From positions 1-52,243 of the forward strand of contig JBKPMK010000018.1 of NCBI GenBank assembly GCA_046732115.1: a stretch of 52,243 bases of DNA, given 5' to 3'. The translations under genes were made by a program, and so were the position numbers. Positions 6,758 through 36,792 of this stretch are shown here, in pieces; position 1 is the stretch's first letter; each line of letters begins with the position of its first letter. Origin of the DNA: Thermoproteota archaeon. Lineage in GTDB: Archaea > Thermoproteota > Nitrososphaeria > Nitrososphaerales > Nitrososphaeraceae. The notes below the pieces were generated by a model. It had not been told where the DNA came from. It saw nothing but the letters and a program-made list of their open reading frames with translations, and did no database searches.

Positions 6758-7696
6758 CTAGAACGATATGGCATTGTAAAGTTCGCTATATTCGTTCTTG
6801 CTTATTTCGCCTTTGGCTAGCCTGACCTTTAATATTTGGAGCGGATCGCTGATCTCCTTGCCTTCTGTTTTAAGGCTCCTATTGCCTCCAAATATTATAT
6901 CACCAGGAATTGCAGTACGATCAATTTTATTATTATTATTATTATTGTGGAGTTCCTTCTTATTCTGCGCATCATGTGTATCATGGACATAGGTGAGGTT
7001 TTTCAATTCGTTTAAAAATTTCCATTCTTTTTTAACGTCCACTCTTGTCTTGCCAATGCGGTATAGTGCCCTGGTCAGCCTATTCTTATCCCTTGCAAGA
7101 GTAGACGGGACATGTAAGGCGATCATAAAACCTTTGGTCGCAAATCTATTCTTCCAATCTCCAGGATATGGCAAATGAACAGGTGTAAAATCTAAAGGTA
7201 GCAATTCGTGCGGAGCCCTGCTTTGTCTGTCCTCATTCTTCCGCAAATAGCCAACATATCCTGGACTCCTATTATACGGGCTCCTCTGTTTTGGGCTTGT
7301 TACAGTATCCATTATTGATGGATCGTGCGTCCTACCTATTACCACAAACGTGGTTCCGCCATATCGCCTGACTGCAGCCTTATGTTGTTCTAGCTGTCTT
7401 TGAGAGTACGTTCTTTTATTGAAAAATCCTGTTATATGGACCTGTATAATCGTACGATCAGGTTTATATCCGAATAAGCTCATAAATTCATAAATCTCTT
7501 GCCTTCGATTTTCCGGAACCTCATTTAGGATCTGATTGGCAGATGTGATATGAGAGGCTGTCATCTCCATAGCCGGCAGTGCAGTTTTTCTCTTAGGTTT
7601 GTTATTGTTGCTATCGCCATCATTGTTATAAATAAGTCGCGAAATTCTTGAGCTATCACCTCGACGGCTGCCATTTCCTAAATCTCCATTGCTCAT
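6758..7696 (-). CDS. hypothetical protein with C-terminal SHOCT-like motif
   Basis: 312 aa. The C-terminal DPLQILKVRLAKGEISKNEYSELYNAI matches the SHOCT short C-terminal domain pattern (L..l...GeIt.eEY...k..l). The roughly 250-aa N-terminal body is not recognised. An (AAT)n-encoded poly-Asn run is present. Confidence 0.55.
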   Translation of the reverse strand: MSNGDLGNGSRRGDSSRISRLIYNNDGDSNNNKPKRKTALPAMEMTASHITSANQILNEVPENRRQEIYEFMSLFGYKPDRTIIQVHITGFFNKRTYSQRQLEQHKAAVRRYGGTTFVVIGRTHDPSIMDTVTSPKQRSPYNRSPGYVGYLRKNEDRQSRAPHELLPLDFTPVHLPYPGDWKNRFATKGFMIALHVPSTLARDKNRLTRALYRIGKTRVDVKKEWKFLNELKNLTYVHDTHDAQNKKELHNNNNNNKIDRTAIPGDIIFGGNRSLKTEGKEISDPLQILKVRLAKGEISKNEYSELYNAISF

Positions 7697-10553: not shown

Positions 10554-11414
10554 CTATAACGTTTGTTCGATCTGATTATATAATGATTTTATAAAGTTAA
10601 GCCCGAATTCTGTATCAGCCCTATACCAGTCGGAGGTTAAATTAGGTTCGAAGCTGATATATTCACTATTATAACCAATTCGATTCAAAGCTTTCATAAT
10701 TGTTTTAAAGTCTATATGCCCGAGGCCAGGCATTTTCCTGTTGTTATCAGCAAAATGAGTATGATGCAGCATTCCCTCTGTACTTATTATTGCATTTTCG
10801 AACGAATCCTCTTCAATATTCATATGAAAAGTGTCCAGCAAAACTCCAAAATTGTCTTGATTTATTTTTTGAGCTATTTTAACTGCATCAGCAGCGGTAG
10901 TGCAGTAGGGGGTACTGTATCTGTTAAGCGGCTCTAACAATGTCTGTATACCTCTATCATTGGCATATCCGGCTAATTCGGATAAGATAGGTAGCACACG
11001 CTGTATAACAGGTAGTTTTTCTTGTTCTGAAATGACCTGGTGGTTTTTGTCTATTAAAGCTAATTTGTCGTCAGCAAAAAGACAAAGGTTTAATTTTTTT
11101 CCGCCCAGCCGATGACACATGTCTATACATTGCATCACATAATTTTGTGAATACCTTATCAAACTTTGGTCTAAGCTTAGTAGTTTTCTTTTCCATCCAT
11201 CTGGACTGATAGAACCCCACATTCCTGTGACGCCACATACAGAAATATCGTATGACTGAAATAGCTCGCGCAGATATTCCAATTTTACGCTTTCTGGTTC
11301 GCCGAACATCTCTATAGCGTCATAGCCTTGATTAAGCAAAGTGTGCAGCGTCTGCTCTAATGGTTCGACTATGCTTCTAAAGGAAGATAGCGTAATAGAA
11401 TATTTTAAAGACAT
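10554..11414 (-). CDS. sugar-phosphate isomerase/epimerase, xylose-isomerase-like TIM barrel
   Basis: 286 aa. Blocks YDAIEMFGEP, TLLEPLNRY, LLDTFHMNIEE and HTHFADNNR are typical of the AP-endonuclease-2/xylose-isomerase-like TIM barrel family. Confidence 0.8.
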   Translation of the reverse strand: MSLKYSITLSSFRSIVEPLEQTLHTLLNQGYDAIEMFGEPESVKLEYLRELFQSYDISVCGVTGMWGSISPDGWKRKLLSLDQSLIRYSQNYVMQCIDMCHRLGGKKLNLCLFADDKLALIDKNHQVISEQEKLPVIQRVLPILSELAGYANDRGIQTLLEPLNRYSTPYCTTAADAVKIAQKINQDNFGVLLDTFHMNIEEDSFENAIISTEGMLHHTHFADNNRKMPGLGHIDFKTIMKALNRIGYNSEYISFEPNLTSDWYRADTEFGLNFIKSLYNQIEQTL

Positions 11415-11508
11415 GCATAATCCTATATTAAAACCAGCTGTTCCAAATTATTTCTTCTCATGTCAGAACCAAAACCGCTATATAATACTAGAATGACAAC
11501 CGAAGCAA

Positions 11509-12939
11509 TCAAGAGGGCTGTACCCATTTGCTAACCGATTTCAGCAGATATTGTCCAATCCCTATACAATCTACGATTCCAGAATTTTTTTGCTCAGGAT
11601 GGTTAATAGCTCCGCTATTTGACTTGTGGCTTGATACGTACAGCGAATATCCCTCCTCAGTGCTGGGATCTACTGGTCTTCCGTGAGAGCCTCTTACTAA
11701 TCTAGTGTCAAGCGGTATTGATCTTGAATGTGGGTCTACGAACAATTCGACTGGATCGTACCCTGGTTTTCTGTGTATATCTACCGTTTGTGCGAACGTG
11801 GGTGCTTTATCTTTGCTATACCACCAGTAGTAGCTAAACCATTTATCCCGATCGGATATTGCAATTAATTCGCCTGATCGTTCATGGTCTATCTTGAGAT
11901 CACTTTTTTCTCGGCCAGAGAGGATCCTATCTACTCCTTTTGTCTCTTCCAATACCCTCTTTGTCTGGTCTAAAAACCCTTCCTTGATATAAATATGAGC
12001 TATTTGGTGGTCTACCATCGCAAATGCATTACTACATTCATAGTCAATATACTCCCTATCATTTATCGTACGTGTAACTAGAAGATTCTCATCTCTTAGC
12101 CCTAGGTTCAAGGGAACGGCTTCCTTTACATCATTAAATCCGTATTCTGACAAGATTATAAATTGTGTATCCTCATGAATACCTAACTGGACTGTCTTGT
12201 CAACTATTTCGCCTACTATATCGTCGGCCTTCTTTAAGTCATCTTGGACTTGTTGGCTCTTCTTACCAAATCTTTGAGCAGAGTAGTCGACATGAGGTAT
12301 GTACGTAAACATCATATTGGGACGTTCATTCTCCAGCGTATATTTGGCCGCATTGCAAATCCACTCGCTGGACTTCGACGAAGCCAAGGGCCCCCAATAG
12401 CTAGCAAGGTCAAATTCTCCTAGCTTTTGTTTTAATTGATTATCATAAAAGCCGATTGGCTTAGAATAACACCACATTTCCATGCGATCTTGGAAATGAA
12501 GAGGTCTAGGCGTGACTACGACGTCCGACCCAGCGTACATGGTATTTTGCCAAAACAATACTGCCGTCTTCACACTGGAGAAAGATGATCCCAATGATGT
12601 GGGAGAAGCCGATGATGAAGGTGATTGAGGCGTGAGATCATTACTCTTTTTGGCTATATCCCAAACTCGATCAGTCTGAACTAGTCTGCTTGACTGTTCC
12701 CAAAACGACACTTCACATTTGATTCGATCATACAACCCATTTGCTATAATCCCATGTCGGCTCGGATATGTGCCTGAAAGTATACTGGTTTGAACAGGGC
12801 AAGTCAATGCCGGAAAAACAGGCTCCATTTTAGCAGCTTCACCATGTGCTGCAATATTTCCAATATTTGGCAATATGTTAGATTCGATATGACGAATTTC
12901 TAATCCAACAACATCAAGCACAATGATATATTTTATCAT
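11509..12939 (-). CDS. alkaline-phosphatase-superfamily nucleotide pyrophosphatase/phosphodiesterase (EboF-like)
   Basis: 476 aa. The N-terminal IIVLDVVGL...LPNIGNIAAHG....FPALTCPVQTSILSGTYPSRHGIIANG matches the type-I phosphodiesterase pattern with a nucleophilic Thr. It contains a Ser-rich low-complexity insert (TPQSPSSSASPTSLGSSFSS). Confidence 0.8.
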   Translation of the reverse strand: MIKYIIVLDVVGLEIRHIESNILPNIGNIAAHGEAAKMEPVFPALTCPVQTSILSGTYPSRHGIIANGLYDRIKCEVSFWEQSSRLVQTDRVWDIAKKSNDLTPQSPSSSASPTSLGSSFSSVKTAVLFWQNTMYAGSDVVVTPRPLHFQDRMEMWCYSKPIGFYDNQLKQKLGEFDLASYWGPLASSKSSEWICNAAKYTLENERPNMMFTYIPHVDYSAQRFGKKSQQVQDDLKKADDIVGEIVDKTVQLGIHEDTQFIILSEYGFNDVKEAVPLNLGLRDENLLVTRTINDREYIDYECSNAFAMVDHQIAHIYIKEGFLDQTKRVLEETKGVDRILSGREKSDLKIDHERSGELIAISDRDKWFSYYWWYSKDKAPTFAQTVDIHRKPGYDPVELFVDPHSRSIPLDTRLVRGSHGRPVDPSTEEGYSLYVSSHKSNSGAINHPEQKNSGIVDCIGIGQYLLKSVSKWVQPS

Positions 12940-13032
12940 AAATTACCAACCTTTATCTTATATCGTAACCTAATACCAATTTGTCATTTAAATTGGTTTG
13001 TTTGTTTGTTTTGCTTGTCTTCTTTTTCGGAT

Positions 13033-13989
13033 TTAGGTCACATAAAGTCGTTTGGACAGGACAACTGCAGGAATGACAAGTATGAGAACGGGCAGCCCAT
13101 AATCTAACCCTGCAACTCCGCTTACAAACATAGAATCAAATATTATGATTGTAATTACCATGTTCTGTACAGTATTCCGCACATGTGAAGAAGAATAACC
13201 GGATTTAGTCTGTATAACAAGAATAGTGATAATGACCGCTGAAAACAGGGCCAAGTTAACGAATAGGTCTTGTCTAAAAATTCCGAGAAAAACTAAAATG
13301 ATAATGCATGCAACTATAAAGAAAATAATCGAAAAGCACTTAACGACAGTCTCTCTGTTGTTACGAAATATTGTTTGTGAATCCTTTTGAAATTCGTCAA
13401 GTTGAACCTCTTTCCTGCTAAGCAGGCTAATTGAAAATATGTACCCGAAGATAAATATAATAATGAACGCCAATCTTGCAAGCAAATTATTATTCTGTAA
13501 TATCAAATACAAAGCTGGACTGCTACCTAGGACAACATTGATGGACCTCGCTAAACCCATCGCAATTGGGCCAAAATTAGTTTTCTTCAGCTTATAATTA
13601 TATGAAATAACTATAACCGAAACAAGACCTGATATCGCATAGCTGTTTGGACCGCCAGCAAAAAAAGCGGCCAAATTGGCAGAAATCATCGACGCTACGC
13701 CGATCGTTATTGCCGTCCGTTTGGAAATCTTTCCCGAAGGAAGTGGTCTGCAAGGACGCTCCTTAAGATCAGTTTGAATGTCAAAATAGTCATTGAACAC
13801 TAGGCCCGATGCGTAAAGTAATATCGATGAAACTGCTAAAAGTGACAATTGTACCATATCGGTATGAATAGGCTTGATTAATGCAAAATACCCGACTAAA
13901 ATATTTGATGGAACAGTAAAGAGGTTAGGTAACCTAATTAAACGTAGATAATCTTCTAACAATAATATTCGCCATGTAAATAATGACAC
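13033..13989 (-). CDS. UbiA-family prenyltransferase (EboC-like)
   Basis: 318 aa, highly hydrophobic with about 8-9 TM segments. The first Asp-rich motif is NDYFDIQTD (NDxxDxxxD). The N-terminal RLIRLPNLFTVPSN is typical of the family. Confidence 0.85.
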   Translation of the reverse strand: MSLFTWRILLLEDYLRLIRLPNLFTVPSNILVGYFALIKPIHTDMVQLSLLAVSSILLYASGLVFNDYFDIQTDLKERPCRPLPSGKISKRTAITIGVASMISANLAAFFAGGPNSYAISGLVSVIVISYNYKLKKTNFGPIAMGLARSINVVLGSSPALYLILQNNNLLARLAFIIIFIFGYIFSISLLSRKEVQLDEFQKDSQTIFRNNRETVVKCFSIIFFIVACIIILVFLGIFRQDLFVNLALFSAVIITILVIQTKSGYSSSHVRNTVQNMVITIIIFDSMFVSGVAGLDYGLPVLILVIPAVVLSKRLYVT

Positions 13990-14083
13990 CGATTGTATAT
14001 CTGAATAACCCTACATCCAATGCAGATCGGCTGGTAGGTCGTACGAATCTTCAGTTGACCGCTAGCCGCACATTCAGTACAAA

Positions 14084-15016
14084 CTATAATTTTTTAATAA
14101 TATTACTCAGATATTCGTATGATGTCTTTGCAGCGGAGAATGGGTCATCCTGGTACGGATAAAGTTCAACAGTTACGAATCCGTTGTAGTTAATTTCACT
14201 GATAGCCTTAAAAATTGAAAGAAAATCAATAGCTCCACGGCCAGGTATTAAATGATTATGTACTCTTGTGTAGGATATATCTGCAAGATGGAAATGTCCT
14301 ATATATCTAGCCAAGCGGTAAATTAGATCAGCTGGGTCTTCTCTAACACAAAAAAAATGAGCTATGTCAAAGTTAAGGCCAACCCAGTCGGAATGTATTT
14401 TGTTGACAAACGTTAAAAATTGCTCTGAATTTTCAATAAGGAGGCCAGGCTCTGGCTCTACAAGTACTTTTACACCACATGATTTAGCAATTTCAGCGCT
14501 TCTGTTGATACCCTCGATAAATAGATCTTCCATTCGATGAAGATCGTAGCGGTTAGTTGCATTATCGTTGATTCTGCCTTCATCATTATCTAAATTAATA
14601 TCTTTATTATAATCTGTTTTTACAGGTCCGCCAGGTTCAGTTGATATGTTTCTGGCTCCTATACTTTTTGCCAGATTGAGGCAATTGTTTGTATGCTCTA
14701 TGCGCAGTTCCCTTAGGCGAACATCTCTTTCTATCCAAGACGGATGATACACATCGGTTATCGCGTAAAGCGTAAAGGCATTAAGGTTAGATACCTGCAT
14801 TTCATTGCTAGAAACAGATTCTTTGATTGAGAGAATATCTTCTTCTTCAAGGTATGGCGGATATGCATGAGGGATATCGCATAGGATCTCTACGCCTTCG
14901 TACCCAATCTTTTTAATTAACCTAATCGATTCTTTCAATGCATATTTTTTAAATGCATTAGTGCTAAAGGCAAGCTTCATGATGGACCAGCAGTTTTTGA
15001 TTCGACCATAGAGCAA
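14084..15016 (-). CDS. xylose-isomerase-like TIM-barrel protein (EboE-like)
   Basis: 310 aa. Contains MKLAFSTNAF (likely true start at Met13, about 14980), YEGVEI, VLVEPEPG, NFDIAHF and HFHLADI. The stop lies 3 nt from the upstream TatD gene. Confidence 0.8.
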   Translation of the reverse strand: MLYGRIKNCWSIMKLAFSTNAFKKYALKESIRLIKKIGYEGVEILCDIPHAYPPYLEEEDILSIKESVSSNEMQVSNLNAFTLYAITDVYHPSWIERDVRLRELRIEHTNNCLNLAKSIGARNISTEPGGPVKTDYNKDINLDNDEGRINDNATNRYDLHRMEDLFIEGINRSAEIAKSCGVKVLVEPEPGLLIENSEQFLTFVNKIHSDWVGLNFDIAHFFCVREDPADLIYRLARYIGHFHLADISYTRVHNHLIPGRGAIDFLSIFKAISEINYNGFVTVELYPYQDDPFSAAKTSYEYLSNIIKKL

Positions 15017-15019
15017 GGT

Positions 15020-15886
15020 TCATGGTTTCCAGGTGAATTTCTCTGATTGTTTGAAGAATTCATATGCATTATAGAATGTTACTTTTTCGATATCGTGTAT
15101 ACTAATTTTGCTGTCCTTTCTCATCTCTCTGGCTACCAATGGAACGCTTAATGGATCGGAAACACCCCAATCAGCAGCACTATGAATCATTATGCGATCC
15201 GGTCCATATTTTCTTATTAATCCAATGGCTCGCTCTGGCGATAGCTTTGTAACGGGATACACGGAAAGGCCGGCCCACATACCTAAATCCAACGTCTTGG
15301 CAATGGTTTCTTCTACATTATGATCTACAAGTATCTTTTTTGTATCGTATTTTCCAGAGGTGTCAGCCTTTAATATATGCTCAATTCGTTTCATTCCTTC
15401 CGATTTATTATTATGAGGTAAATGTATAGAAGTCAGCATTTTTTTCTGAGATGCAATGTCCATCTGTTTTATGAAGACTTCTTCTTCAAGATCATTTATC
15501 ATGTTGTAACCGATTTCTCCTATTGCAACTACCCTTTCCCTGTCAAGATATCTGATCATGGCATCCATCGCATCTAATGCTAAAGGTCTTTCTGTAGCCT
15601 CCTTTGGGTTTACTGAAATGCATACAAAATGTTCTATTGCGAATTCTCTCGCCCTTTTTGTTTCAAAACTGATCATGTGCTCCCAATAATCTACAAACGT
15701 TCCAACTGATGTTCTTGGACTACCTAGCCAAAATGAAGGTTGAACTATAACTTCGATGCCAGCTTTAGACATTGCATCGTAGTCGTCAGTGGTACGGGAA
15801 TACATATGTATATGTGGATCGATTAACCTTGTCAAGATCGTACAGTAAATATGTCTGTTTCTCCTCAATAATAAAAATGTGTGCAA
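15020..15886 (-). CDS. TatD-family metal-dependent hydrolase (EboB-like)
   Basis: Contains IDPHIHMYSRTTDDY (HxH metal motif), AIGEIGYN, SIHLPH and LVDHN. The first 17 residues of the track ORF look non-native. An in-frame TTG at 15833-15835 (M-TRLIDPHIH) is a more natural start. Confidence 0.8.
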   Translation of the reverse strand: MHTFLLLRRNRHIYCTILTRLIDPHIHMYSRTTDDYDAMSKAGIEVIVQPSFWLGSPRTSVGTFVDYWEHMISFETKRAREFAIEHFVCISVNPKEATERPLALDAMDAMIRYLDRERVVAIGEIGYNMINDLEEEVFIKQMDIASQKKMLTSIHLPHNNKSEGMKRIEHILKADTSGKYDTKKILVDHNVEETIAKTLDLGMWAGLSVYPVTKLSPERAIGLIRKYGPDRIMIHSAADWGVSDPLSVPLVAREMRKDSKISIHDIEKVTFYNAYEFFKQSEKFTWKP

Positions 15887-15988
15887 TCTTTTTTATCCCT
15901 GTTAACGTACCCTCGGATGAGAGTAAATAAGAGACACACACCTTAGCAATAAAGTAACATGAGGAGAAGAAATAAGAAGGAGATGTAA

Positions 15989-17122
15989 ATGCGCGCGGCG
16001 GTATTTTATGGACCAGGCAGCATCGCCAATGAGGAGGTAGATTGCGATTTTCGGTATAATCGAATCGATCCATCATACACAAGAATTGAAGGCGATGTTT
16101 TTTTAAAAGTCAAAGCCTGTGCAGTTTGTGGATATGACGTCAGGGTATACAGAAATGGACATCACAAAATTATATCGCCTGTAATATTAGGACACGAAAT
16201 CTGTGGCCAGGTTAATTCAGACATAACAGTCAATAGTTTAAGATCCAACCACGCAAACATTATAAAGCGTGATATAAAGGCCGGCTCAAGAGTAGCGGTC
16301 TCGCCTCTAATCCCTTGTCTGAGTTGCGTGTATTGTCAATTCGAACTCTACAATCTCTGTATTAACCTAAAAGAAATAGGCTCTAGTGTAAATGGCGGTT
16401 TCGCTGAGTTTGTAAAAATACCCCAGCAGCTCTTGAAGATCGGGGGCTTGGTTCCTGTACCTGACAACTTGAGCGATGAGGAAGCAGCTTTACTTGAACC
16501 ACTTGCCTGTTGTTTGAATGGTCTTTATCATTTGAACCCACTTATAAGAAGAAATGAACAAGGCTCCGTGGCTATAATCGGAGATGGACCAATAGGTCTG
16601 CTGCATTTGCAATTAGTAAAAAATATGTGCAACGCAAACGTGACTGTTATAGGAAGAGTCTCACAAAGACTAAACCACGCCAAATGGATGGGAGCAAATG
16701 CTACAATTACCTTTGCTGACGCTCAATTTGATCAAAGCTTGGAAAAAACCATGGAGCTTACAGCCGGAGTCGGCTTCAATGTCATTATAATTGCTACAAG
16801 TAATCCTGTGGCTCTTGATTTTGCACTAAAAATCGCAAGCAAGAACTCACGCATCAACATTTTTGCAGGGATGCCAAAAATAACTAATCCTTCGATGTTT
16901 TCATTAGATCCAAATTTTTTGCATTACAACCAAATTTCTATTACGGGTAGCTTTAGCTCAACCCCATCCACCTTAATGGAAGCTGCCAAACTTGCTTCTC
17001 AAGGAGAAATTAGTTTATCGACACTAGTGACCCACAAGTATCATCTCAGAGATATTGTACAAGCTGTTCTTGATACTGAAACGTACCGAGGTCTGAGAGT
17101 TGTAATCAATAGATTTCACTAG
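15989..17122 (+). CDS. zinc-dependent medium-chain alcohol/polyol dehydrogenase
   Basis: Contains the catalytic-zinc block ILGHEICGQV, structural-zinc Cys cluster CLSCVYCQFELYNLC and Rossmann IIGDGPIGLL. Transcribed divergently from the TatD-TIM-UbiA-phosphodiesterase-TIM gene string. Confidence 0.85.
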   Translation: MRAAVFYGPGSIANEEVDCDFRYNRIDPSYTRIEGDVFLKVKACAVCGYDVRVYRNGHHKIISPVILGHEICGQVNSDITVNSLRSNHANIIKRDIKAGSRVAVSPLIPCLSCVYCQFELYNLCINLKEIGSSVNGGFAEFVKIPQQLLKIGGLVPVPDNLSDEEAALLEPLACCLNGLYHLNPLIRRNEQGSVAIIGDGPIGLLHLQLVKNMCNANVTVIGRVSQRLNHAKWMGANATITFADAQFDQSLEKTMELTAGVGFNVIIIATSNPVALDFALKIASKNSRINIFAGMPKITNPSMFSLDPNFLHYNQISITGSFSSTPSTLMEAAKLASQGEISLSTLVTHKYHLRDIVQAVLDTETYRGLRVVINRFH

Positions 17123-24098: not shown

Positions 24099-25190
24099 AT
24101 GCGTATAACATTATCGGCAATTAAGGCAGACATCGGGGGAATTGGTGGCCATACTCGTCCAAGCGACGAGCTATTCGAGGTTGTAAAAAGTTACATCGGA
24201 ACGAAAGCAAAAGGTCTGCTCATTGACTATTATGTTGGTTACACCGGCGACGATATTCATATTGTCATGACTCATACACTTGGTATTGAAAATGAGAAAA
24301 TCCACCAGTTGGCGTGGGATGCGTTCACAGAAGGAACCAAACTTGCTAAAGAGCAGGGTCTATATGGAGCCGGCCAAGACCTGCTCAAGGATGCCTTTTC
24401 AGGCAATATAAAAGGACTTGGGCCCGGAGTCGCAGAAATGCATATAGAGGAACGACCAAGCGAAGTCTTTTGTGTATTTGCTGCAGATAAGACAGAACCT
24501 GGTGCGTTTAATTTCCCATTCTGGCGAATATTTGTCGATAGCAGAAGCAACACAGGATTATTAATTAACGAAAACCTTGCATCAGGCGTTACGTTCAGGA
24601 TTTTGGATGTCATGTCGGGTAAAATTGCGGATCTGAAGCTGTGGGCTGAAAAGGCAGAGTTAGAAGCGGCGCTTATGTATCCTGGACGCTTCGTTGTGCA
24701 TTCCGTGCTCGCCTCTGATGGAGAACAAATCCTTTCTTCATCAACTGACAGGTTACACAACATTGCAGGCACGTATGTCGGGAAGGACGATCCCATATCT
24801 ATAGTAAGGACTCAGAAAAACTTTCCTGCTACCGAGGAGGCGGGAAGTGCATTTAATGATCCGCATTATGTGGCCGGTAACACCAGGGGCAGCCATCACC
24901 TACCACTTATGCCAGTTAAATTGAATTCTGCGGCGAGTCTTAATTATTCGATACCAATTGTTTCTTGCTTGGTTTTTAGTATGCATGCGGGAAAGTTAAC
25001 TGGCCCACATGACGGTTTTGGTACAGCCGATTGGGATCTACAGAGAACGTGGGCTGCCGAAAGAGCAATGATGATGAGAAATCAGGGATTTATACATCCG
25101 GCTACCCTTGTCCCGGAGGAATTGGAATATAATAAAGGATATCAAGCAAGAATTGATAAACTTAACGAAAAATTTAGAGACTTGAAGTAG
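24099..25190 (+). CDS. fbp: bifunctional fructose-1,6-bisphosphate aldolase/phosphatase (class V FBPase)
   Basis: 363 aa. The N-terminus MRITLSAIKADIGGIGGHTRP and overall length are characteristic of the archaeal FBP aldolase/phosphatase family. Confidence 0.95.
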   Translation: MRITLSAIKADIGGIGGHTRPSDELFEVVKSYIGTKAKGLLIDYYVGYTGDDIHIVMTHTLGIENEKIHQLAWDAFTEGTKLAKEQGLYGAGQDLLKDAFSGNIKGLGPGVAEMHIEERPSEVFCVFAADKTEPGAFNFPFWRIFVDSRSNTGLLINENLASGVTFRILDVMSGKIADLKLWAEKAELEAALMYPGRFVVHSVLASDGEQILSSSTDRLHNIAGTYVGKDDPISIVRTQKNFPATEEAGSAFNDPHYVAGNTRGSHHLPLMPVKLNSAASLNYSIPIVSCLVFSMHAGKLTGPHDGFGTADWDLQRTWAAERAMMMRNQGFIHPATLVPEELEYNKGYQARIDKLNEKFRDLK

Positions 25191-25238
25191 ATGCCTGACA
25201 ATAATTTCATCGCTGATTAATCAAATAAAACAAAGGGG

Positions 25239-25910
25239 CTGAAGCGTCTGCTCATAATCAACTTTAAAAATTATCTCGAGCTCTCCTCAGACAACACTCT
25301 CGAACTAGCGATGGCGGCTCAAAAGGCTGCGCATATGCTGAAGGTTAAAACTGTGGTAGCGCCGCCCCCACCATCACTGTCTTTGGTGGCACAAAATTTG
25401 GATATTCCTGTGTTCTGCCAGCACCTCGACGATATGCAAGCCGGTCAGTCAACAGGATTCTTTATACCGGAACTAGCAAGATCATTTGGTGCATCAGGTT
25501 CGATCTTAAATCATAGCGAGCATCGTTTAGAGTATCAAACTATTCGCAGCCTAGTCCAAACGTTAAGAAAATTGGATATGGTTTCCGTCGTGTGTGCTAG
25601 AACGCCAGACGAGGCTGCAGAACTAGCGAGGTTAAATCCTAACTTTATTGCGATCGAACCCCCTGAATTGATCGGTTCAGGGAAAGCAGTATCAAAAGAA
25701 AATCCTAAAGTTATATTGGATACTGTGAAACTAGTCTCTGCAAATTCAGAATCGACTAGAGTTATTTGTGGAGCAGGAATAGTTGATAAGAGCGATGTAC
25801 GAAGTGCAGTTGATTTAGGAGTAATAGGAATTCTAGTTGCAAGTGGAATAGTTAAAGCAAAGTCTTGGTATGAAAAGATATTAGAGCTAGGTTCAGGATT
25901 GTCAGAATAA
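25239..25910 (+). CDS. tpiA: triosephosphate isomerase (archaeal type); start codon unresolved
   Basis: Contains the catalytic His block ILNHSEHR and catalytic Glu block IAIEPPELIGSG. The conserved N-terminal substrate-binding motif LLIINFKNY is encoded at 25248-25274. This is upstream of the first canonical ATG (25311) but downstream of the in-frame TAA at 25218-25220. The start given here is the first in-frame CTG. Confidence 0.85.
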   Translation: MKRLLIINFKNYLELSSDNTLELAMAAQKAAHMLKVKTVVAPPPPSLSLVAQNLDIPVFCQHLDDMQAGQSTGFFIPELARSFGASGSILNHSEHRLEYQTIRSLVQTLRKLDMVSVVCARTPDEAAELARLNPNFIAIEPPELIGSGKAVSKENPKVILDTVKLVSANSESTRVICGAGIVDKSDVRSAVDLGVIGILVASGIVKAKSWYEKILELGSGLSE

Positions 25911-29623: not shown

Positions 29624-32600
29624 ATGACATCTACTTTTTTAGAAATGTGGCCAATAATTAATGATATTTTGAGAAGAGAGGGTGTTGCGCGACAGCATCT
29701 GAATTCATATAACGAGTTTATGGAACGCGGACTCCAAAGCATTATTGATGAAGTTGGAGAGGTCGAAGTGGAGACTGCTGAATACCCATACAAAATAAGG
29801 TTAGGTAAGATAAAGCTACAACAACCAAGGATTATGGAATTGGATGGTTCTATAACACACGTAGCACCTATGGAAGCTAGACTTAGAAATCTTACGTATG
29901 CATCGCCTATAATGCTTGAATGTAGCATTATAGAGGATGGTAAGATACTCGAATCCCGGTTTATACATGTAGGCGATATGCCTGTTATGGTCAAATCAAA
30001 TGCATGTATTTTGCATAATTTGCCTGAAACTAGACTTATCGAAGTAGGAGAAGATCCACGCGACCCAGGGGGCTATTTTGTAATTAATGGCTCTGAGAGA
30101 GTAATAGTTGGCCTGGAAGACCTTTCGTATAATAAAATTATTGTCGATACGGAGGAGGCCACAGGAAGCTTGGTCTACAAAGCCAAAGTATATTCCTCTA
30201 TAGTAGGCTATAGGGCCAAGCTTGAGCTCATAATGCGGTCTGATGGTTCCGTGGCAGCAAAAATTCCTGGCTCTCCAGTGGACATCCCTTTGGTAACTCT
30301 AGTCAGAGCCTTAGGCTTAGAATCTGATAAGGACATTGCTAATGCCGTATCACTAAATGGCGCGATACAAGATGAACTAGAGCCATCGTTCGAAAAAGCA
30401 GGTGAGATAATTACAAGTAGAGATGCGATCATATATATCAGTAAAAGGATCGCTCCAGGAATGTTGGAGGAATTCCAGATAAAGCGGGCTGAAACTTTGC
30501 TTGATTGGGGACTGTTGCCACACCTTGGTAAAAATCCCGACAATAGGCACGAAAAGGCGCTTTTCCTTGGGGAAGCATCCAGCAAATTGATTGAATTAAA
30601 ATTACAGTGGATTGAGCCGGATGACAAAGACCACTACGGCAACAAGGTTATCAAGTTCGGCGGACAGATGCTAGCTGACCTTTTTAGAACGGCATTTAGG
30701 AACTTAATAAGGGATATGAAATATCAGCTGGAAAGATCTGGACAGAAGCGGGGTATTAATGCAGTAGCTGCAGCGGTTAGACCCGGTATTATTTCAGATA
30801 AGCTAAACAACGCTATTGCGACGGGCAATTGGGGTCGAGGTAGGGTAGGTGTGACGCAACTGCTGGATAGAACAAATTATATGTCAACTATAAGTCATTT
30901 ACGTAGAATACAGTCTCCGCTAAGCAGAAGTCAGCCAAATTTCGAAGCAAGAGATTTACATGCTACACATTTTGGCAGGATTTGTCCGGCAGAAACTCCT
31001 GAAGGATCAAATTGTGGCCTTGTGAAAAATTTGGCGCTCTCAGCCATAATTTCAGTTAGTGTCGCATCTGCCGAAATTGTGGAGAAGCTGTATGAACAAG
31101 GGGTCGAGCAAGTTGATGAGGCTAATGATAGGATACGAAGTATTGGAACTAGGACTTTCGTGGATGGGCGATTAATAGGCTATGCTGAAGACGGACAGCA
31201 TCTATCTGATACATTGAGGGCGATGAGAAGAACCGGAAAAATTCATCCTCACATTGGGATTTATCTATATTCGTCATTGAATGATAATGCCACTAAGAGG
31301 TTATACATTAGTTGTAATGCCGGTCGAGTACTAAGACCGCTTGTGGTGGTTGACCAAGGCAAAGTATTGATGAACCCCGAAATAATAGAAAAAGTCGCAA
31401 AGAAGTTCCTCTCATGGACAGACCTTCTGTATATGGGGATGGTCGAAATGGTTGACGCAAACGAAGAGGAGAATTGCTATGTAGCAATGGATCCTGCAAA
31501 AATCGATAAGTCTCATACTCACTTAGAAATATTCCCATCTGCAATTCTTGGCGTTGGAGCTTCGATTATACCATATCCTGAACATAATCAGTCACCTAGA
31601 AACACTTACGAGAGTGCTATGGCAAAGCAGAGTCTAGGATTTTCTACTCCTCTGATGAATGCTAGTACTTATGTAAGACAACACTTCATGCTTTATCCAC
31701 AGGTTCCAATGGTTAGTACTAAGGCGATTAGCCTACTAGGCCTAGACGACCGTCCGACTGGTCAGAATTGCGTTGTGGCCGTTCTGCCCTTCGAAGGTTA
31801 TAATATCGAAGATGCTGTAGTTTTTAATAAATCCTCCATTGACAGGGGTATAGGCAGAACTTTCTTCTACAGGGTCTATGAAGCTGAAGCGAAACAGTAC
31901 CCTGGTGGAATGAAAGATAATTTTGAACTTCCACCTTCTGATGCTAATATTAGGGGCTACAGGGGAGAAAAAGCCTATCGTCTTCTTGAGCAAGATGGTG
32001 CAATTATGCAAGAATCTGTGGTAGCAGGTGGTGACATACTGATCGGACGAACTTCTCCCCCCAGATTTATGGAGGAGTATAAAGAGTTCGAAGTCAAAGG
32101 ACCTTATCGCAGGGATACGTCAGTTGGCGTTCGACCATCCGAAAATGGCGTCGTGGATTCAGTAATTATGACTCAATCCGTTGAAGGAGGAAAAATGTAT
32201 AAAATTAGAGTGAGAGATATGCGAATTCCTGAAATTGGCGATAAATTTGCATCTAGGCACGGGCAAAAGGGAGTAATCGGAATGCTCGTTAGTCAGGAAG
32301 ACCTACCGTATACAGAGGATGGGATTGTTCCTGATGTGATGATAAACCCTCATGCATTTCCGTCTAGGATGACAGTAGGTCAATTCATGGAGTCTGTTGG
32401 AGGAAAGGCCGCCTCGGCGCTCGGTAGAATAGTAGACGGTTCTGCATTTCTAGGTGAGAAATTAGATGAATTGAAGGGTGCACTGGAGCAGTATGGATTG
32501 AAATATACAGGGAAAGAAATAATGTATGACGGTAGGACTGGAAAGAAATTTCCGGCTGATGTCTACATAGGCGTCGTGTATTATCAAAAGCTACATCATA

Positions 32601-32974
32601 TGGTGGCTGACAAAATCCATAGCAGAGCTAGGGGTCAAGTTCAAATGCTTACAAAGCAGCCGACTGAGGGAAGAGCTCGTGGGGGAGGACTCCGGTTTGG
32701 AGAGATGGAAAGAGATTGTCTTATTGCATATGGTGCCTCGATGATGTTGAAAGATAGATTACTAGAAGAATCCGACAAGGCGGAGGTAAACGTGTGTGAA
32801 CGCTGCGGTTTGTTGTCGTATTACGACATTAAACAACGAAGGTATATCTGCCGAGTTTGCGGGGAGAAGGCAAAAATTTCGTCTGTAGTAATTGCTTACG
32901 CCTTTAAATTGCTCTTGCAGGAAATGATGAGCCTAAACGTTGCACCACGATTGCTAGTTAGGGAGAAGGTATAA
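29624..32974 (+). CDS. rpoB: DNA-directed RNA polymerase subunit B (unsplit, 1116 aa)
   Basis: Contains GDKFASRHGQKGV, FGEMERDCLIAYGA and the C-terminal zinc motif CERCG...CRVCG. Confidence 0.98.
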   Translation: MTSTFLEMWPIINDILRREGVARQHLNSYNEFMERGLQSIIDEVGEVEVETAEYPYKIRLGKIKLQQPRIMELDGSITHVAPMEARLRNLTYASPIMLECSIIEDGKILESRFIHVGDMPVMVKSNACILHNLPETRLIEVGEDPRDPGGYFVINGSERVIVGLEDLSYNKIIVDTEEATGSLVYKAKVYSSIVGYRAKLELIMRSDGSVAAKIPGSPVDIPLVTLVRALGLESDKDIANAVSLNGAIQDELEPSFEKAGEIITSRDAIIYISKRIAPGMLEEFQIKRAETLLDWGLLPHLGKNPDNRHEKALFLGEASSKLIELKLQWIEPDDKDHYGNKVIKFGGQMLADLFRTAFRNLIRDMKYQLERSGQKRGINAVAAAVRPGIISDKLNNAIATGNWGRGRVGVTQLLDRTNYMSTISHLRRIQSPLSRSQPNFEARDLHATHFGRICPAETPEGSNCGLVKNLALSAIISVSVASAEIVEKLYEQGVEQVDEANDRIRSIGTRTFVDGRLIGYAEDGQHLSDTLRAMRRTGKIHPHIGIYLYSSLNDNATKRLYISCNAGRVLRPLVVVDQGKVLMNPEIIEKVAKKFLSWTDLLYMGMVEMVDANEEENCYVAMDPAKIDKSHTHLEIFPSAILGVGASIIPYPEHNQSPRNTYESAMAKQSLGFSTPLMNASTYVRQHFMLYPQVPMVSTKAISLLGLDDRPTGQNCVVAVLPFEGYNIEDAVVFNKSSIDRGIGRTFFYRVYEAEAKQYPGGMKDNFELPPSDANIRGYRGEKAYRLLEQDGAIMQESVVAGGDILIGRTSPPRFMEEYKEFEVKGPYRRDTSVGVRPSENGVVDSVIMTQSVEGGKMYKIRVRDMRIPEIGDKFASRHGQKGVIGMLVSQEDLPYTEDGIVPDVMINPHAFPSRMTVGQFMESVGGKAASALGRIVDGSAFLGEKLDELKGALEQYGLKYTGKEIMYDGRTGKKFPADVYIGVVYYQKLHHMVADKIHSRARGQVQMLTKQPTEGRARGGGLRFGEMERDCLIAYGASMMLKDRLLEESDKAEVNVCERCGLLSYYDIKQRRYICRVCGEKAKISSVVIAYAFKLLLQEMMSLNVAPRLLVREKV

Positions 32975-33000
32975 TAGAATATTCCGTGGAGTGAGAAAAG

Positions 33001-36000
33001 TTGGAAGAATCAATAAAAATTCTCGATGGTATAAAGTTTAGTGTATGGTCACCTGTAGAAATTCGTAAATTTAGCGTAGCAGAAATAACGGCTCCAGAGA
33101 CGTACGACGAAGATGGGATGCCCGTTCAGGGTGGTCTTATGGACAATAGGCTGGGCACGTTAGAACCTGGCCAAAAATGTTCCACTTGCGGTAATACAAG
33201 TGTAAAATGCCCTGGCCATTTTGGCCACATTGAATTGGCAGAGCCGGTGCTGCATATTGCATTTGTTGATGACATACATAAACTTCTCTTAATTACATGC
33301 AGATCATGTAATCGCATAAAATTAAAGGTAGAAGAGCTCTCGAAATATAAGGCTCTCAGAGATAGCAAAGCCGCATATGCTGTAATCACCCTCGAAAATG
33401 CTAAAGACGAAATCATAGAAAAAGCAAAGAAAGTTAAAGTATGCCCTCATTGTAAGAAGGATCAATATGACATAGTTTTTACAAAACCGACTATTTTCGT
33501 AGAAAAGACAGACGCTGGAGAAAATAGGCTTTTGCCAATTACGATCAGAGAAAGGTTAGCCCATATTCCTGATGATGATCTGATAGTCCTAGGTTACAAC
33601 CCTACCACGGCGAGACCTGAATGGTTTGTGTTACAGGTTCTTCCAGTACCTCCTGTCACGGTAAGGCCTTCTATCATATTAGAGACCGGGATAAGATCGG
33701 AAGATGATTTGACACACAAGCTTGTAGACATTATCAGGGTAAACCAAAGACTGAAAGAAAGTAAGGAAGCAGGAACCCCACCTCTAATTGTTCAAGATCT
33801 TGTCGATCTCCTTCAGTATCATGTTACGACGTACTTCGATAATGAGGTATCTGGAATACCGCAAGCACATCACAGATCAGGAAGACCACTTAAGACTTTA
33901 ACCCAGAGATTAAAAGGGAAGGAAGGCCGATTTAGAGGTTCTCTGTCAGGTAAACGAGTCGACTTTTCTAGTAGGACTGTAATTTCTCCAGACCCTAACC
34001 TAATGATTTCAAACGTTGGCGTACCAGTGGATGTTGCAAAAAAGCTCACCATTCCGGAGACTATTTCGCAGTGGAATCTCGATAGACTCAAGAAATTGGT
34101 TATCAATGGACCGAACATATATCCTGGCGCAAATTACATAATCCGGCCTGATGGGGTAAAAATTAGATTGGATTATGTTACCGATAGAAAGATTGTAGCA
34201 GAATCATTAGCGCCTGGATATATGGTAGAACGGCACTTGTCAGACGGAGATATAGTAATCTTCAATAGGCAACCGTCCCTTCACCGGATGTCAATTATGG
34301 CACACTATGTAAGAGTACTACCGTACCGAACATTCAGACTTCATCCCGCTGTATGTCCTCCATATAATGCAGATTTTGATGGAGATGAAATGAATCTTCA
34401 TGTTCCTCAAAGCGAAGAGGCGAGAGCGGAGGCAGCGCTTTTGATGAGAGTTCAAGACCAACTAATTTCGCCAAGATACGGCGGGCCGATTATAGGTGGC
34501 ATTAGAGATTTTATTACTGGGGCGTTCATATTAACCCGAGACGACACCACACTTACCAGAGAGGAATTTGCCAACCTGGCATTGATAGGCGGTTACAGAG
34601 GAGCACTTCCCCAACCAAAGATAGTAAAAGACGGCTCAAAATTGTACTCTGGAAAGCAGCTTTTTTCGCTATTTTTCCCTAACGATTTCAACTTTATAAT
34701 CACCTCAAAATGGAACAAAGCGGCAAAGAGGGAAGGAAAGGATGTGGTTATAAAAAATGGGGAACTGATTAGTGGGGTTATAGACAAAGCCTCAATCGGT
34801 GCAGAGGAACCTGATAGCGTTCTCCATAGGATAGCAAAAGATTATGGTACTGATACAGCAAGGAAATTCCTCGATTCTATACTAATAATGCTGAAAACAT
34901 ACATAACGCATATAGGTTTTACGTATGGATACTCTGACTTGTGGCTGAGTCAGCAAACAAACTCAGAGATTAATGATGTTATTCAAAAGGCATATGATAG
35001 GGTTCACGAGCTAATCCAGCAATACAAAGACGGAACTCTGCCTCTAACAAGAGGGCTTTCTCCTGACGAGGCACTGGAGCTTTACATAGTAAACGAATTG
35101 TCAAGAGCAAGAGACAGGGCTGGTAAAACTGCAGACAGAGCATTTCCTGATGATAATTCTGGTGTTATCATGGCATCGACAGGAGCTAGAGGTTCTACCC
35201 TTAATATTGGACAGATGACTGCTGCATTAGGCCAGCAGTCAATAAGGGGAAAGAGAATCTTTAAGGGGTATCATTATAGGTCACTTCCACATTTCAAAAC
35301 AAATGACACAAATCCCGACGCCAAGGGATTTATAAAATCAAATTACAGAGACGGCTTGAGTCCTTTAGAGTTCTTCTTTCATGCTATGGGTGGCAGAGAG
35401 GGCTTAGTGGACACCGCAGTTAGAACTCAACAATCAGGATACATGCAGAGGAGGTTGATTAACGCTCTCGAACATCTAAAGATAGAGTATGATCAAACTG
35501 TAAGAGATCCACATGGTAACATTATGCAATATGTTTATGGAGAAGATGGAATCGATCCTGCCAAAAGTGACCATGGAGAAGCTGTGAATATCTCCAGGTT
35601 AATTGAAAGCGAATCTGTTATCGACGAGGGCAGAAAGGCTACGGAAAATGATATTAAAAGTATAGTACAAAGATATGCCGATAATCTAAATCCAAGGCTA
35701 AGAAATAATTTGGAACAGGCATTGCTCGAAAACAGATTAAGCAAAGAGGGAATTGAGAAGGTAATGAAAAAAACGATTGACCTCAACGAAAGGGCTCTTG
35801 CTGAACCCGGCGAAGCCGTAGGTGTTGTAACTGCACAGTCAATTGGTGAGCCAGGGACGCAAATGACTCTTAGGACGTTTCATTTTGCAGGAGTAAAAGA
35901 ACGAAATGTCACACTTGGGCTGCCAAGGCTAATAGAATTAGTTGATGCCAGGAAGAAACCAGTAACACCAACCATGGATGTATACTTAGACAATGATTAC

Positions 36001-36792
36001 AAAGTATCTAGAGAAAAGGCACTCGAGGTTGCGAGGGAAATTATTTTGACTCGTGTAAGTGACTTGATCGATAAGACCGATATTGATTATAGCGGTATAC
36101 TTACTTTTTATTTATCAGAAGACAAGCTATCTGAGCGTGGTTGTGAAATAAAAGAAGTCTATGAGGTACTCAAGGGCTCTAAGAAGAAGTATGAAGCTTC
36201 CCTTAACGAAAAGAAGCTATTGATAAAGATAACCTCTACTGACGAACCTGATGCTCAAACACTTTTGACACTAAAAAACAAATTGCTCAGCACGAGGGTT
36301 AAAGGTGTGCCTGATATTGAAAGAGTGACCATAGTAAAGCAAGACGAGGAATGGGTAATTCAAACTGCAGGGTCGAACCTAGCCAAGATAGTAGCAATAA
36401 AGGGCGTGGATACGTCTAGAATCACAACAAATAATGTCTATGAAATTTGGCAGACACTTGGCATTGAAGCAGCTCGTACTGCTCTTGTAAAGGAGATCAC
36501 AAATACACTAGAAGAACAAGGGCTTGAAGTTGATACAAGGCATATCATGCTAGTAGCGGATCTAATGACATCAAAAGGATATTTACAACAAATCGGTCGA
36601 CATGGTATTGCTGGAACTAAGACATCGGTTTTAGCAAGAGCCGCGTTTGAGATTACGGTCCCAACTATTGCTAGGGCGTCTTTGGAGGGTCAGATCGAAA
36701 CGCTCAGGGGAGTAACGGAAAACGTTATAGTAGGAGCTACTGTTCCAGTAGGTACCGGCATGGTAGAGCTCTATATGATGGTGAAGGAATAA
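33001..36792 (+). CDS. rpoA: DNA-directed RNA polymerase subunit A, unsplit (A'+A'' in one 1263-aa ORF)
   Basis: Has the N-terminal zinc motifs (CSTCG..CPGHFGH), catalytic NADFDGDEMN, and trigger-loop/A''-type C-terminal third (GEPGTQMTLRTFHFAG) in the same frame. TTG start. Confidence 0.97.
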   Translation: MEESIKILDGIKFSVWSPVEIRKFSVAEITAPETYDEDGMPVQGGLMDNRLGTLEPGQKCSTCGNTSVKCPGHFGHIELAEPVLHIAFVDDIHKLLLITCRSCNRIKLKVEELSKYKALRDSKAAYAVITLENAKDEIIEKAKKVKVCPHCKKDQYDIVFTKPTIFVEKTDAGENRLLPITIRERLAHIPDDDLIVLGYNPTTARPEWFVLQVLPVPPVTVRPSIILETGIRSEDDLTHKLVDIIRVNQRLKESKEAGTPPLIVQDLVDLLQYHVTTYFDNEVSGIPQAHHRSGRPLKTLTQRLKGKEGRFRGSLSGKRVDFSSRTVISPDPNLMISNVGVPVDVAKKLTIPETISQWNLDRLKKLVINGPNIYPGANYIIRPDGVKIRLDYVTDRKIVAESLAPGYMVERHLSDGDIVIFNRQPSLHRMSIMAHYVRVLPYRTFRLHPAVCPPYNADFDGDEMNLHVPQSEEARAEAALLMRVQDQLISPRYGGPIIGGIRDFITGAFILTRDDTTLTREEFANLALIGGYRGALPQPKIVKDGSKLYSGKQLFSLFFPNDFNFIITSKWNKAAKREGKDVVIKNGELISGVIDKASIGAEEPDSVLHRIAKDYGTDTARKFLDSILIMLKTYITHIGFTYGYSDLWLSQQTNSEINDVIQKAYDRVHELIQQYKDGTLPLTRGLSPDEALELYIVNELSRARDRAGKTADRAFPDDNSGVIMASTGARGSTLNIGQMTAALGQQSIRGKRIFKGYHYRSLPHFKTNDTNPDAKGFIKSNYRDGLSPLEFFFHAMGGREGLVDTAVRTQQSGYMQRRLINALEHLKIEYDQTVRDPHGNIMQYVYGEDGIDPAKSDHGEAVNISRLIESESVIDEGRKATENDIKSIVQRYADNLNPRLRNNLEQALLENRLSKEGIEKVMKKTIDLNERALAEPGEAVGVVTAQSIGEPGTQMTLRTFHFAGVKERNVTLGLPRLIELVDARKKPVTPTMDVYLDNDYKVSREKALEVAREIILTRVSDLIDKTDIDYSGILTFYLSEDKLSERGCEIKEVYEVLKGSKKKYEASLNEKKLLIKITSTDEPDAQTLLTLKNKLLSTRVKGVPDIERVTIVKQDEEWVIQTAGSNLAKIVAIKGVDTSRITTNNVYEIWQTLGIEAARTALVKEITNTLEEQGLEVDTRHIMLVADLMTSKGYLQQIGRHGIAGTKTSVLARAAFEITVPTIARASLEGQIETLRGVTENVIVGATVPVGTGMVELYMMVKE

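Follow-up and report, generated by a model that had tools for sequence, protein, structure and literature searches.

What product is made by a compact set of prenyltransferase, hydrolase and TIM barrel genes in a member of the Nitrososphaeraceae? The question is raised by a window of 52,243 nt (the whole stretch of DNA that was analysed) from the Nitrososphaeraceae contig JBKPMK010000018.1, which carries a six-gene module encoding a zinc-dependent medium-chain dehydrogenase/reductase (MDR), a TatD-like hydrolase (TatD), two TIM barrel proteins (TIM1 and TIM2), a UbiA-family prenyltransferase (UbiA) and an alkaline-phosphatase-family enzyme (AP). The initial annotation described the module as related to the bacterial ebo operon and as reproducing four of the six Ebo protein families. 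The relationship holds, with EboB-, EboF- and EboC-type proteins encoded; the count of four does not, since TIM1 is not EboE. Homology to the ebo core was observed for three proteins (TatD, AP and UbiA), and TIM1 corresponds to the cluster-specific TIM barrel of clusters that lack eboD. We therefore consider it probable, at roughly 60%, that the module represents, in Nitrososphaeraceae, the ebo-type module without eboD and that it makes a prenylated cyclitol-derived metabolite.

Defined in 2016 (PMC5133447), the ebo operon was tied to scytonemin export in 2018 (PMC6282210), and its prenyltransferase EboC (Ubi-297) farnesylates 8-hydroxyquinaldic acid (PMC9235831). A preprint of May 2026 reports that ebo genes determine the biosynthesis of thallusin, an algal morphogen, with a core of eboB, C, E and F that are each essential in Stieleria and a ring scaffold derived from a cyclitol and L-aspartate (10.64898/2026.05.21.724671). 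The same work describes an Actinomycetota-type ebo cluster that has no eboD and uses ino1-3, shows experimentally that this type yields thallusin/saccharoquinoline in Saccharomonospora, and counts, without describing them, ebo clusters in two archaeal phyla (10.64898/2026.05.21.724671). The initial view of ebo as an operon without a known product, described in bacteria and eustigmatophyte plastids, is thus outdated. From the loci found here, the two archaeal phyla would be Thermoproteota and Halobacteriota; no paper describing the cluster in ammonia oxidizers or haloarchaea was found.

No EboB- or EboF-specific NCBIfam model was returned for the window proteins, and the assignments of TatD and AP therefore rest on annotated loci and on plasmid-wide specificity. 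Reference ebo-type loci were taken from PLSDB (Aureibacter pAT1, Bacillus cereus pN435-1.1, Haloferax volcanii pHV3 and Streptomyces). TatD is 39-43% identical over about 265 amino acids (aa) to the TatD proteins of all four loci (E = 8e-66 to 5e-81; 39.6% and E = 4e-74 for Aureibacter EboB), and AP is 36-41% identical over about 420-460 aa to their EboF or nucleotide pyrophosphatase-family (NPP) proteins (E = 1.5e-97 to 5e-123; 36% and E = 1.5e-97 for Aureibacter EboF). In a search of 72,556 plasmids at E <= 1e-10, TatD matched 60 records and AP 64, in the same taxa and at adjacent coordinates where both were listed; among the matches listed, many of those for TatD lie beside EboA-domain genes, and the matched records are apparently all ebo-type loci. 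TatD shares the motifs DPHIH, GEIG, HTPH and SAADWG-SDPL with EboB, and AP keeps the FPA-x-T-x-x-x-Q nucleophile motif. Combined, the identity to genuine ebo proteins and the plasmid specificity agree with the families first named for these two genes, and TatD and AP are classed from their sequences as EboB and EboF orthologues. AP also contains a Ser/Pro-rich low-complexity insertion, TPQSPSSSASPTSLGSSFSS, at residues ~103-125 (window 12570-12640), which is absent from the aligned bacterial and haloarchaeal EboF proteins.

For UbiA, the best NCBIfam model was EboC (NF035940) with 160.8 bits, under its cut-off of 250, followed by the SCO3242 family with 123 bits (cut-off 260). The housekeeping models scored 75 bits (PRK12884, cut-off 269), 55.3 bits (PRK12882, cut-off 296) and 36.3 bits (UbiA, cut-off 275), and no MenA model was among the NCBIfam matches. 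A housekeeping identity as digeranylgeranylglyceryl phosphate synthase (DGGGPS) or MenA was ruled out on these scores, with DGGGPS-type models reaching at most 75 bits; EboC and SCO3242 lead the housekeeping models by a wide margin, with EboC first, as the initial placement near EboC had anticipated. Only 42 proteins reached E <= 1e-30 when 1.84 billion representatives were searched exhaustively with HMMER, and all ten representatives sampled across clusters of the top 150 had EboC or SCO3242 as their best model, none of them attaining the cut-offs. Alignment with EboC (Aureibacter, Bacillus), SCO3242 (Streptomyces) and the Haloferax and planctomycete homologues showed that the NDxxDxxxD and ERPxRPxPSG motifs are kept; N66, D67, D70, D74, R78, P79, R81, Y130, K135, R148 and E194 are invariant in the window protein, EboC, SCO3242 and the Haloferax UbiA, and Y130, K135, R148 and E194 stay invariant with the planctomycete homologue included. 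We take the single invariant Glu (E194) to stand at the place of the second Asp-rich motif of other UbiA enzymes. A neighbour-joining tree, midpoint-rooted and without bootstrap (the PDB, which has no EboC-type structure, supplied no proper outgroups), placed all labelled Nitrososphaeria sequences in one 45-tip clade, apart from every labelled bacterial and haloarchaeal sequence. Judged by model scores and motifs, the window UbiA belongs to the EboC/SCO3242 superclade, short of strict EboC membership by the curated cut-off.

The first of the two barrels, TIM1, had been read as EboE, which was not borne out. It scored 33.8 bits on the EboE model (NF035939, cut-off 250), aligns only in part with two genuine EboE proteins, at 25-27% identity (E = 1.5e-4 and 2.5e-9), and is about 90 residues shorter than EboE (~390 aa); TIM1 as EboE was ruled out accordingly. 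Its relatives are found elsewhere in eboD-less clusters: identity is 48.7% to the Bacillus TIM immediately upstream of eboC (E = 2.5e-102), 38-41% to haloarchaeal TIMs (38% for Haloferax), ~41% to the TIM beside the planctomycete UbiA and 23% to the Streptomyces TIM adjoining the SCO3242 prenyltransferase (E = 1e-18). When the plasmids were searched with TIM1, the Bacillus and haloarchaeal ebo-type loci came first. By these similarities TIM1 is placed in the TIM subfamily that accompanies eboC in eboD-less clusters, and the Streptomyces protein is probably one of the "Ino2/Ino3" isomerase/dehydratase genes of the preprint. The EboE search threshold used there was MMseqs2 E <= 1e-3 (10.64898/2026.05.21.724671). 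TIM1 would pass it, which probably explains the archaeal counts in that work.

The absence of EboA and EboD from the module, proposed from the start, was confirmed by tblastn: Aureibacter EboD found nothing in the window or any archaeal locus, and two EboA proteins matched only one bacterial locus (L084) and nothing in the window or the archaeal loci. With regard to the supply of a ring precursor, a genuine myo-inositol-1-phosphate synthase (MIPS; inositol-3-phosphate synthase in the Bacillus and haloarchaeal clusters) is encoded in Nitrososphaeraceae, not as part of the module. It lies 4-6 kb upstream of partial UbiA-AP-TIM2 ("type B") loci. There the MIPS gene sits with genes for a GNAT acetyltransferase and a 380-aa class-I Cys-tRNA-synthetase-like (MshC-like) protein, a set that resembles mycothiol-type biosynthesis genes and lies 2-6 kb upstream of the partial locus in L059 (4420-7779) and similarly in L048, L057, L061, L065 and L074.

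The remaining two proteins may point to inositol or related polyol chemistry, MDR and TIM2 being best or near-best on the inositol-pathway models IolM and IolO and on TM_0416. The NCBIfam matches of TIM2 were led by IolO (139.8 bits) and D-psicose 3-epimerase (116.5 bits), both under cut-off, with no match to the EboE model, and its best PDB matches were TM_0416 and D-tagatose 3-epimerases. For MDR, Tdh scored 136 bits and the scyllo-inosose 3-dehydrogenase IolM 134, both far under cut-off, and the best PDB matches were 4ej6, galactitol-1-phosphate 5-dehydrogenase and RspB, which are polyol/sugar-phosphate dehydrogenases. MDR carries the catalytic Cys/GHE, the structural-zinc CxxCxxCx7C and the GDGPIG motifs; the Asp of NAD-specific relatives is replaced by Gly-Arg, a possible sign that NADP(H) is the cofactor. 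The reference ebo loci contain practically nothing that matches TIM2 (17-20% identity to the Bacillus and haloarchaeal TIMs), and the bacterial and haloarchaeal ones compared hold no equivalent of MDR; the nearest plasmid relatives of TIM2 and MDR are generic Sinorhizobium sugar-phosphate isomerases and generic Zn-dehydrogenases, respectively, none of the latter inside an ebo-type locus. Both are therefore, as far as these comparisons indicate, accessory additions specific to the Nitrososphaeria module.

Comparison with known systems places the window closest to two groups of clusters with two TIM genes. On Bacillus cereus-group plasmids (pN435-1.1, locus L086, and five others) the order is TIM-TatD-TIM-eboC-NPP-MIPS, and on H. 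volcanii pHV3 (HVO_RS01025-01055) it is TatD-TIM-UbiA-TIM with divergent MIPS and NPP. Like the window, these clusters have the TatD-TIM-UbiA core order, an NPP/AP gene and two TIMs, and they have no EboA, EboD or EboE; identities to the window proteins are 39-43% for TatD, 37-41% for AP, and 49% (Bacillus) and 38% (Haloferax) for TIM1. They differ in containing MIPS and in that both of their TIMs are of the TIM1 subfamily, whereas the window has no MIPS, a ketose-epimerase-type second TIM and an extra divergent Zn-dehydrogenase. The canonical eboABCDEF operon of Bacteroidota, cyanobacteria and eustigmatophyte plastids has EboB, EboF and an EboC-type protein in common with the window in a tight, co-oriented arrangement; relative to Aureibacter pAT1 (eboA-B-C-D-E-F), the window lacks EboA, EboD and EboE, has a UbiA below cut-off, and has TIM2 and MDR in addition. 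The Actinomycetota type (in Streptomyces, MIPS - SCO3242-family prenyltransferase - TIM - EboA - TatD - EboE - AP) resembles the window in the lack of eboD, in an extra sugar-phosphate-isomerase-type TIM distantly related to TIM1 and in a proposed inositol-derived precursor, but it retains EboA and EboE, includes MIPS among its genes, and its prenyltransferase passes the SCO3242 model. Archaeal DGGGPS and other housekeeping UbiA enzymes share the superfamily fold and the NDxxDxxxD motif in a different genomic context.

Several of these relatives have features of their own. The H. volcanii cluster (L087, record 242688-249367) is, outside Nitrososphaeria, the nearest archaeal counterpart to the reduced core; it adjoins genes for a multicopper oxidase and a PVC-type haem-binding protein, the PGAP name of the haloarchaeal UbiA homologue is only "UbiA family prenyltransferase", and no functional study of the cluster was found in the literature. 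The B. cereus-group plasmid clusters, which represent an ebo form without eboA, D and E in Bacillota, are flanked by FAD-dependent, pyrroloquinoline quinone-dependent and thiamine pyrophosphate-binding enzymes. In four Planctomycetota loci (L078, on the Tundrisphaera lichenicola chromosome, L080, L081 and L083), a TIM1-type barrel (41-42% identity) lies directly upstream of UbiA with no annotated EboE there, and an EboB-type TatD is found 3-4 kb off in L078 and L083.

Conservation of the module was assessed by scanning species-representative genomes with an 11-sequence UbiA alignment, a 31-sequence alignment being too diverse for the scan. The output comprised 80 loci, of which about 75 belong to soil ammonia-oxidizing archaea, four to Planctomycetota and one to an unclassified bacterium; the archaeal loci are labelled Nitrososphaeraceae, Nitrososphaera, Ca. 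Nitrosopolaris and Ca. Nitrosocosmicus, with a few Nitrosopumilaceae and Nitrosotalea metagenome-assembled genomes (MAGs). The same layout, a divergent MDR followed by TatD-TIM-UbiA-AP-TIM, is present in L001-L004 at 63% and 47% UbiA identity with different flanking genes, and among Nitrososphaeraceae genomes with varying flanks it can be followed to UbiA identities as low as 27%. Gene content was judged by tblastn with the six window proteins in the 44 archaeal loci that had enough flank. All six genes were present in 20 of these, TIM2 followed AP in 33, and MDR adjoined TatD in most complete loci. The partial loci consisted of UbiA-AP-TIM2 (n=7), MDR-TatD-TIM1-UbiA (n=6), all genes but MDR (n=3), TIM1-UbiA-AP-TIM2 (n=3), TatD-TIM1-UbiA (n=1) and UbiA alone (n=4). 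The neighbourhood is thus conserved in related genomes, and chance adjacency of the six genes was ruled out by this conservation across loci.

The module is also variable in its integrity and in the divergence of its members. One MAG has UbiA-AP-TIM2 a second time in addition to its complete module (L021 and L065), showing that partial paralogous copies occur; Ca. Nitrosocosmicus agrestis has the module broken into three two-gene blocks by inserts encoding unrelated proteins. Median identity to the window protein is highest for TatD (77%), followed by AP (59%), TIM1 (56%), TIM2 (55%) and MDR (52%), and lowest for UbiA (42%). Unbiased clustering of each open reading frame (ORF) across all the loci brought up no further neighbour family with wide conservation; recurring "families" of about 100 aa were rejected as antisense shadow ORFs within TIM1, TatD and MDR. 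Within one Nitrososphaeraceae sublineage (L046, L050, L053, L054, L055, L066 and L079), a gene for an EgtD-like histidine methyltransferase (PF10017) directly follows the module, ~3.3-5.6 kb downstream of the UbiA start, beside a gene for an EgtB-like FGE-sulfatase/DinB protein, together an ergothioneine-type gene pair.

From these results a pathway can be proposed. Because the EboD cyclase is absent, inositol phosphate is put forward as the six-carbon ring precursor; it would come from a MIPS encoded elsewhere in the genome and replace the EboD product. MDR and TIM2, possibly with TIM1, would first oxidize this precursor; epimerization or dehydration by them would follow and give an intermediate of the deoxy-inosose type. 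Further processing may fall to the EboB- and EboF-type enzymes, by analogy with bacteria through condensation with L-aspartate and aromatization to a hydroxyquinaldate, and UbiA would finally attach, at the membrane, a prenyl chain of farnesyl length or more. The predicted end product is a meroterpenoid akin to saccharoquinoline or thallusin, not necessarily identical to either; it may differ from thallusin because EboE and EboA are missing and UbiA falls in its own fast-evolving clade.

A number of observations weigh against this pathway. Deletion of eboE alone abolishes thallusin in Stieleria (10.64898/2026.05.21.724671), and both EboE and EboA are absent from the module. The thallusin-ebo link itself rests on a preprint without peer review, and no two-TIM, eboD-less cluster has a known product. 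The substrates of UbiA may differ from those of EboC, given its score under the curated EboC cut-off and its position as the least conserved member of the module. No MIPS was found in the window or next to complete modules, the IolO and IolM scores of TIM2 and MDR are far below the family cut-offs, with Tdh scoring as high as IolM, and many genomes have sub-blocks in place of the full module.

The alternative that survives best, and which was proposed in the initial annotation, is that the product is a prenyl-cyclitol or prenyl-sugar phosphate which stays in the membrane of the archaeon in the manner of a lipid or head group. The lipids of the host are isoprenoid, the only solved structure matched by UbiA is M. 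jannaschii DGGGPS (33 bits, in the N-terminal half), the EboE and EboA of the thallusin route are missing, and an AP-family phosphodiesterase with sugar-type TIMs would suit phosphorylated-polyol chemistry. We nevertheless consider this unlikely, as UbiA scores more than twice as high on EboC as on any DGGGPS-type model and characterized EboC enzymes act on aromatic hydroxyquinoline acceptors; an aromatic cyclitol-derived metabolite is the likelier product because the acids that characterized EboC farnesylates are hydroxyquinaldic. A patchy distribution, partial clusters and a fast-evolving UbiA would also be unusual for a core membrane function, and the archaeal loci among the 80 returned come mostly from Nitrososphaeraceae and Nitrososphaera, with few from Nitrosopumilaceae or Nitrosotalea MAGs.

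Less probable still is that authentic thallusin or saccharoquinoline is made as in bacteria, with TIM1 functionally replacing EboE. The EboB, EboC-like and EboF homologues that this would need are present, and TIM1 is weakly EboE-like at the superfamily level, enough to pass the MMseqs2 threshold; its low score on the EboE model and its shorter length argue against such a replacement, as do the separation of the UbiA clade from every tested thallusin-type EboC and the fact that the producers tested so far are all of other cluster architectures. A sugar/inositol catabolic or salvage cluster with the prenyltransferase as a mere neighbour is very improbable, for although TIM2 and MDR resemble ketose epimerases and polyol/inosose dehydrogenases, TatD and AP are specifically ebo-type rather than generic, the TIM1-UbiA adjacency is kept in archaea, Bacillus, haloarchaea and Planctomycetota, and ORF clustering of all loci revealed no transporter or kinase conserved nearby.

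The prenylated cyclitol-derived metabolite thus remains the preferred reading of the module, the layout of which is given in the table. The ORF listing of the window contains all six genes at the positions and on the strands initially assigned to them. The coordinates are those of the longest possible ORFs; N-terminal conservation in close relatives suggests that the true starts of TIM1, UbiA and TatD lie slightly inside.

Table. Genes of the ebo-type module in the window, with coordinates of the longest possible ORFs.
Protein	Coordinates	Strand	Remarks
MDR, Zn-dependent medium-chain dehydrogenase/reductase	15989..17122	+	divergent from TatD; Pfam ADH_N + ADH_zinc_N
TatD, EboB-type metal-dependent hydrolase	15020..15886	-	Pfam TatD_DNase 55.5 bits; start probably near 15835
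TIM1, xylose-isomerase-like TIM barrel	14084..15016	-	Pfam AP_endonuc_2; start probably 14980 (MKLAFSTNAF)
UbiA, EboC-related membrane prenyltransferase	13033..13989	-	Pfam UbiA 75 bits; start probably near 13965
AP, EboF-type alkaline-phosphatase/nucleotide-pyrophosphatase-family enzyme	11509..12939	-	Pfam Phosphodiest 188 bits
TIM2, ketose-3-epimerase/IolO-like TIM barrel	10554..11414	-	Pfam AP_endonuc_2

All six families are well over the Pfam gathering threshold, the AP_endonuc_2 scores of the two TIM barrels being 133 and 114 bits. UbiA is the sole module protein with multiple strongly hydrophobic segments; the other five have none above the hydropathy threshold used. Three intergenic gaps of the module are near-equal in length (11415-11508, 12940-13032 and 13990-14083; 94, 93 and 94 bp), and TatD and TIM1 nearly abut. 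Inspection by eye revealed no obvious common motif in the three gaps, and each gene may have a separate promoter. The G+C content is uniform over the region and the flanks consist of ordinary chromosomal genes, encoding NurA, TFB, a response regulator, FtsZ-like and MiaB-like proteins, a fructose-bisphosphate (FBP) aldolase/phosphatase and triosephosphate isomerase. To the positions 24099-25910 and 29624-36792 belong nearby housekeeping genes, for the archaeal FBP aldolase/phosphatase (PF01950) and triosephosphate isomerase, and two very large ORFs of 1116 and 1263 aa. The window also contains a 312-aa ORF with poly-Asn runs (6758-7696, minus strand) for which only a weak C-terminal SHOCT-domain match was obtained.

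Ammonia-oxidizing archaea are among the most abundant soil microbes, and to our knowledge almost nothing is known of their specialized metabolism. The specific architecture of the module, its lack of a true EboE and its link to the reduced clusters of Bacillus, haloarchaea and planctomycetes are undescribed before this study; the passing count of archaeal clusters in the preprint lowers the surprise. An ebo-related UbiA is encoded in about 75 species-level genomes of soil ammonia-oxidizing archaea, mostly Nitrososphaeraceae, and the module is wholly or partly retained at most of the loci concerned. The reduced core of EboB, EboC-like and EboF proteins with a non-EboE TIM, found also in Bacillus plasmids, haloarchaea and some Planctomycetota, defines the pathway in a minimal form that does without EboE. 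Where genome mining relies on loose EboE homology, the resulting tallies of "thallusin producers" probably take in clusters such as this one, the products of which may be different. Direct experimental access is offered by cultured Nitrososphaera and Nitrosocosmicus, among which Nitrososphaera sp. AFS and Ca. Nitrosocosmicus agrestis carry the cluster, and by the genetically tractable Haloferax volcanii. A broader and much more tentative proposal is that Nitrososphaeraceae widely make an as yet unseen prenylated cyclitol-derived metabolite from inositol, independently of EboE, EboA and EboD, possibly a thallusin-like metal-chelating signal or metallophore. If this were true, the metabolite might help to acquire iron or copper, or act in cross-kingdom signalling that involves the plants, algae or cyanobacteria of the soil, and the module would be among the first dedicated natural-product pathways recognized in these globally abundant nitrifiers.

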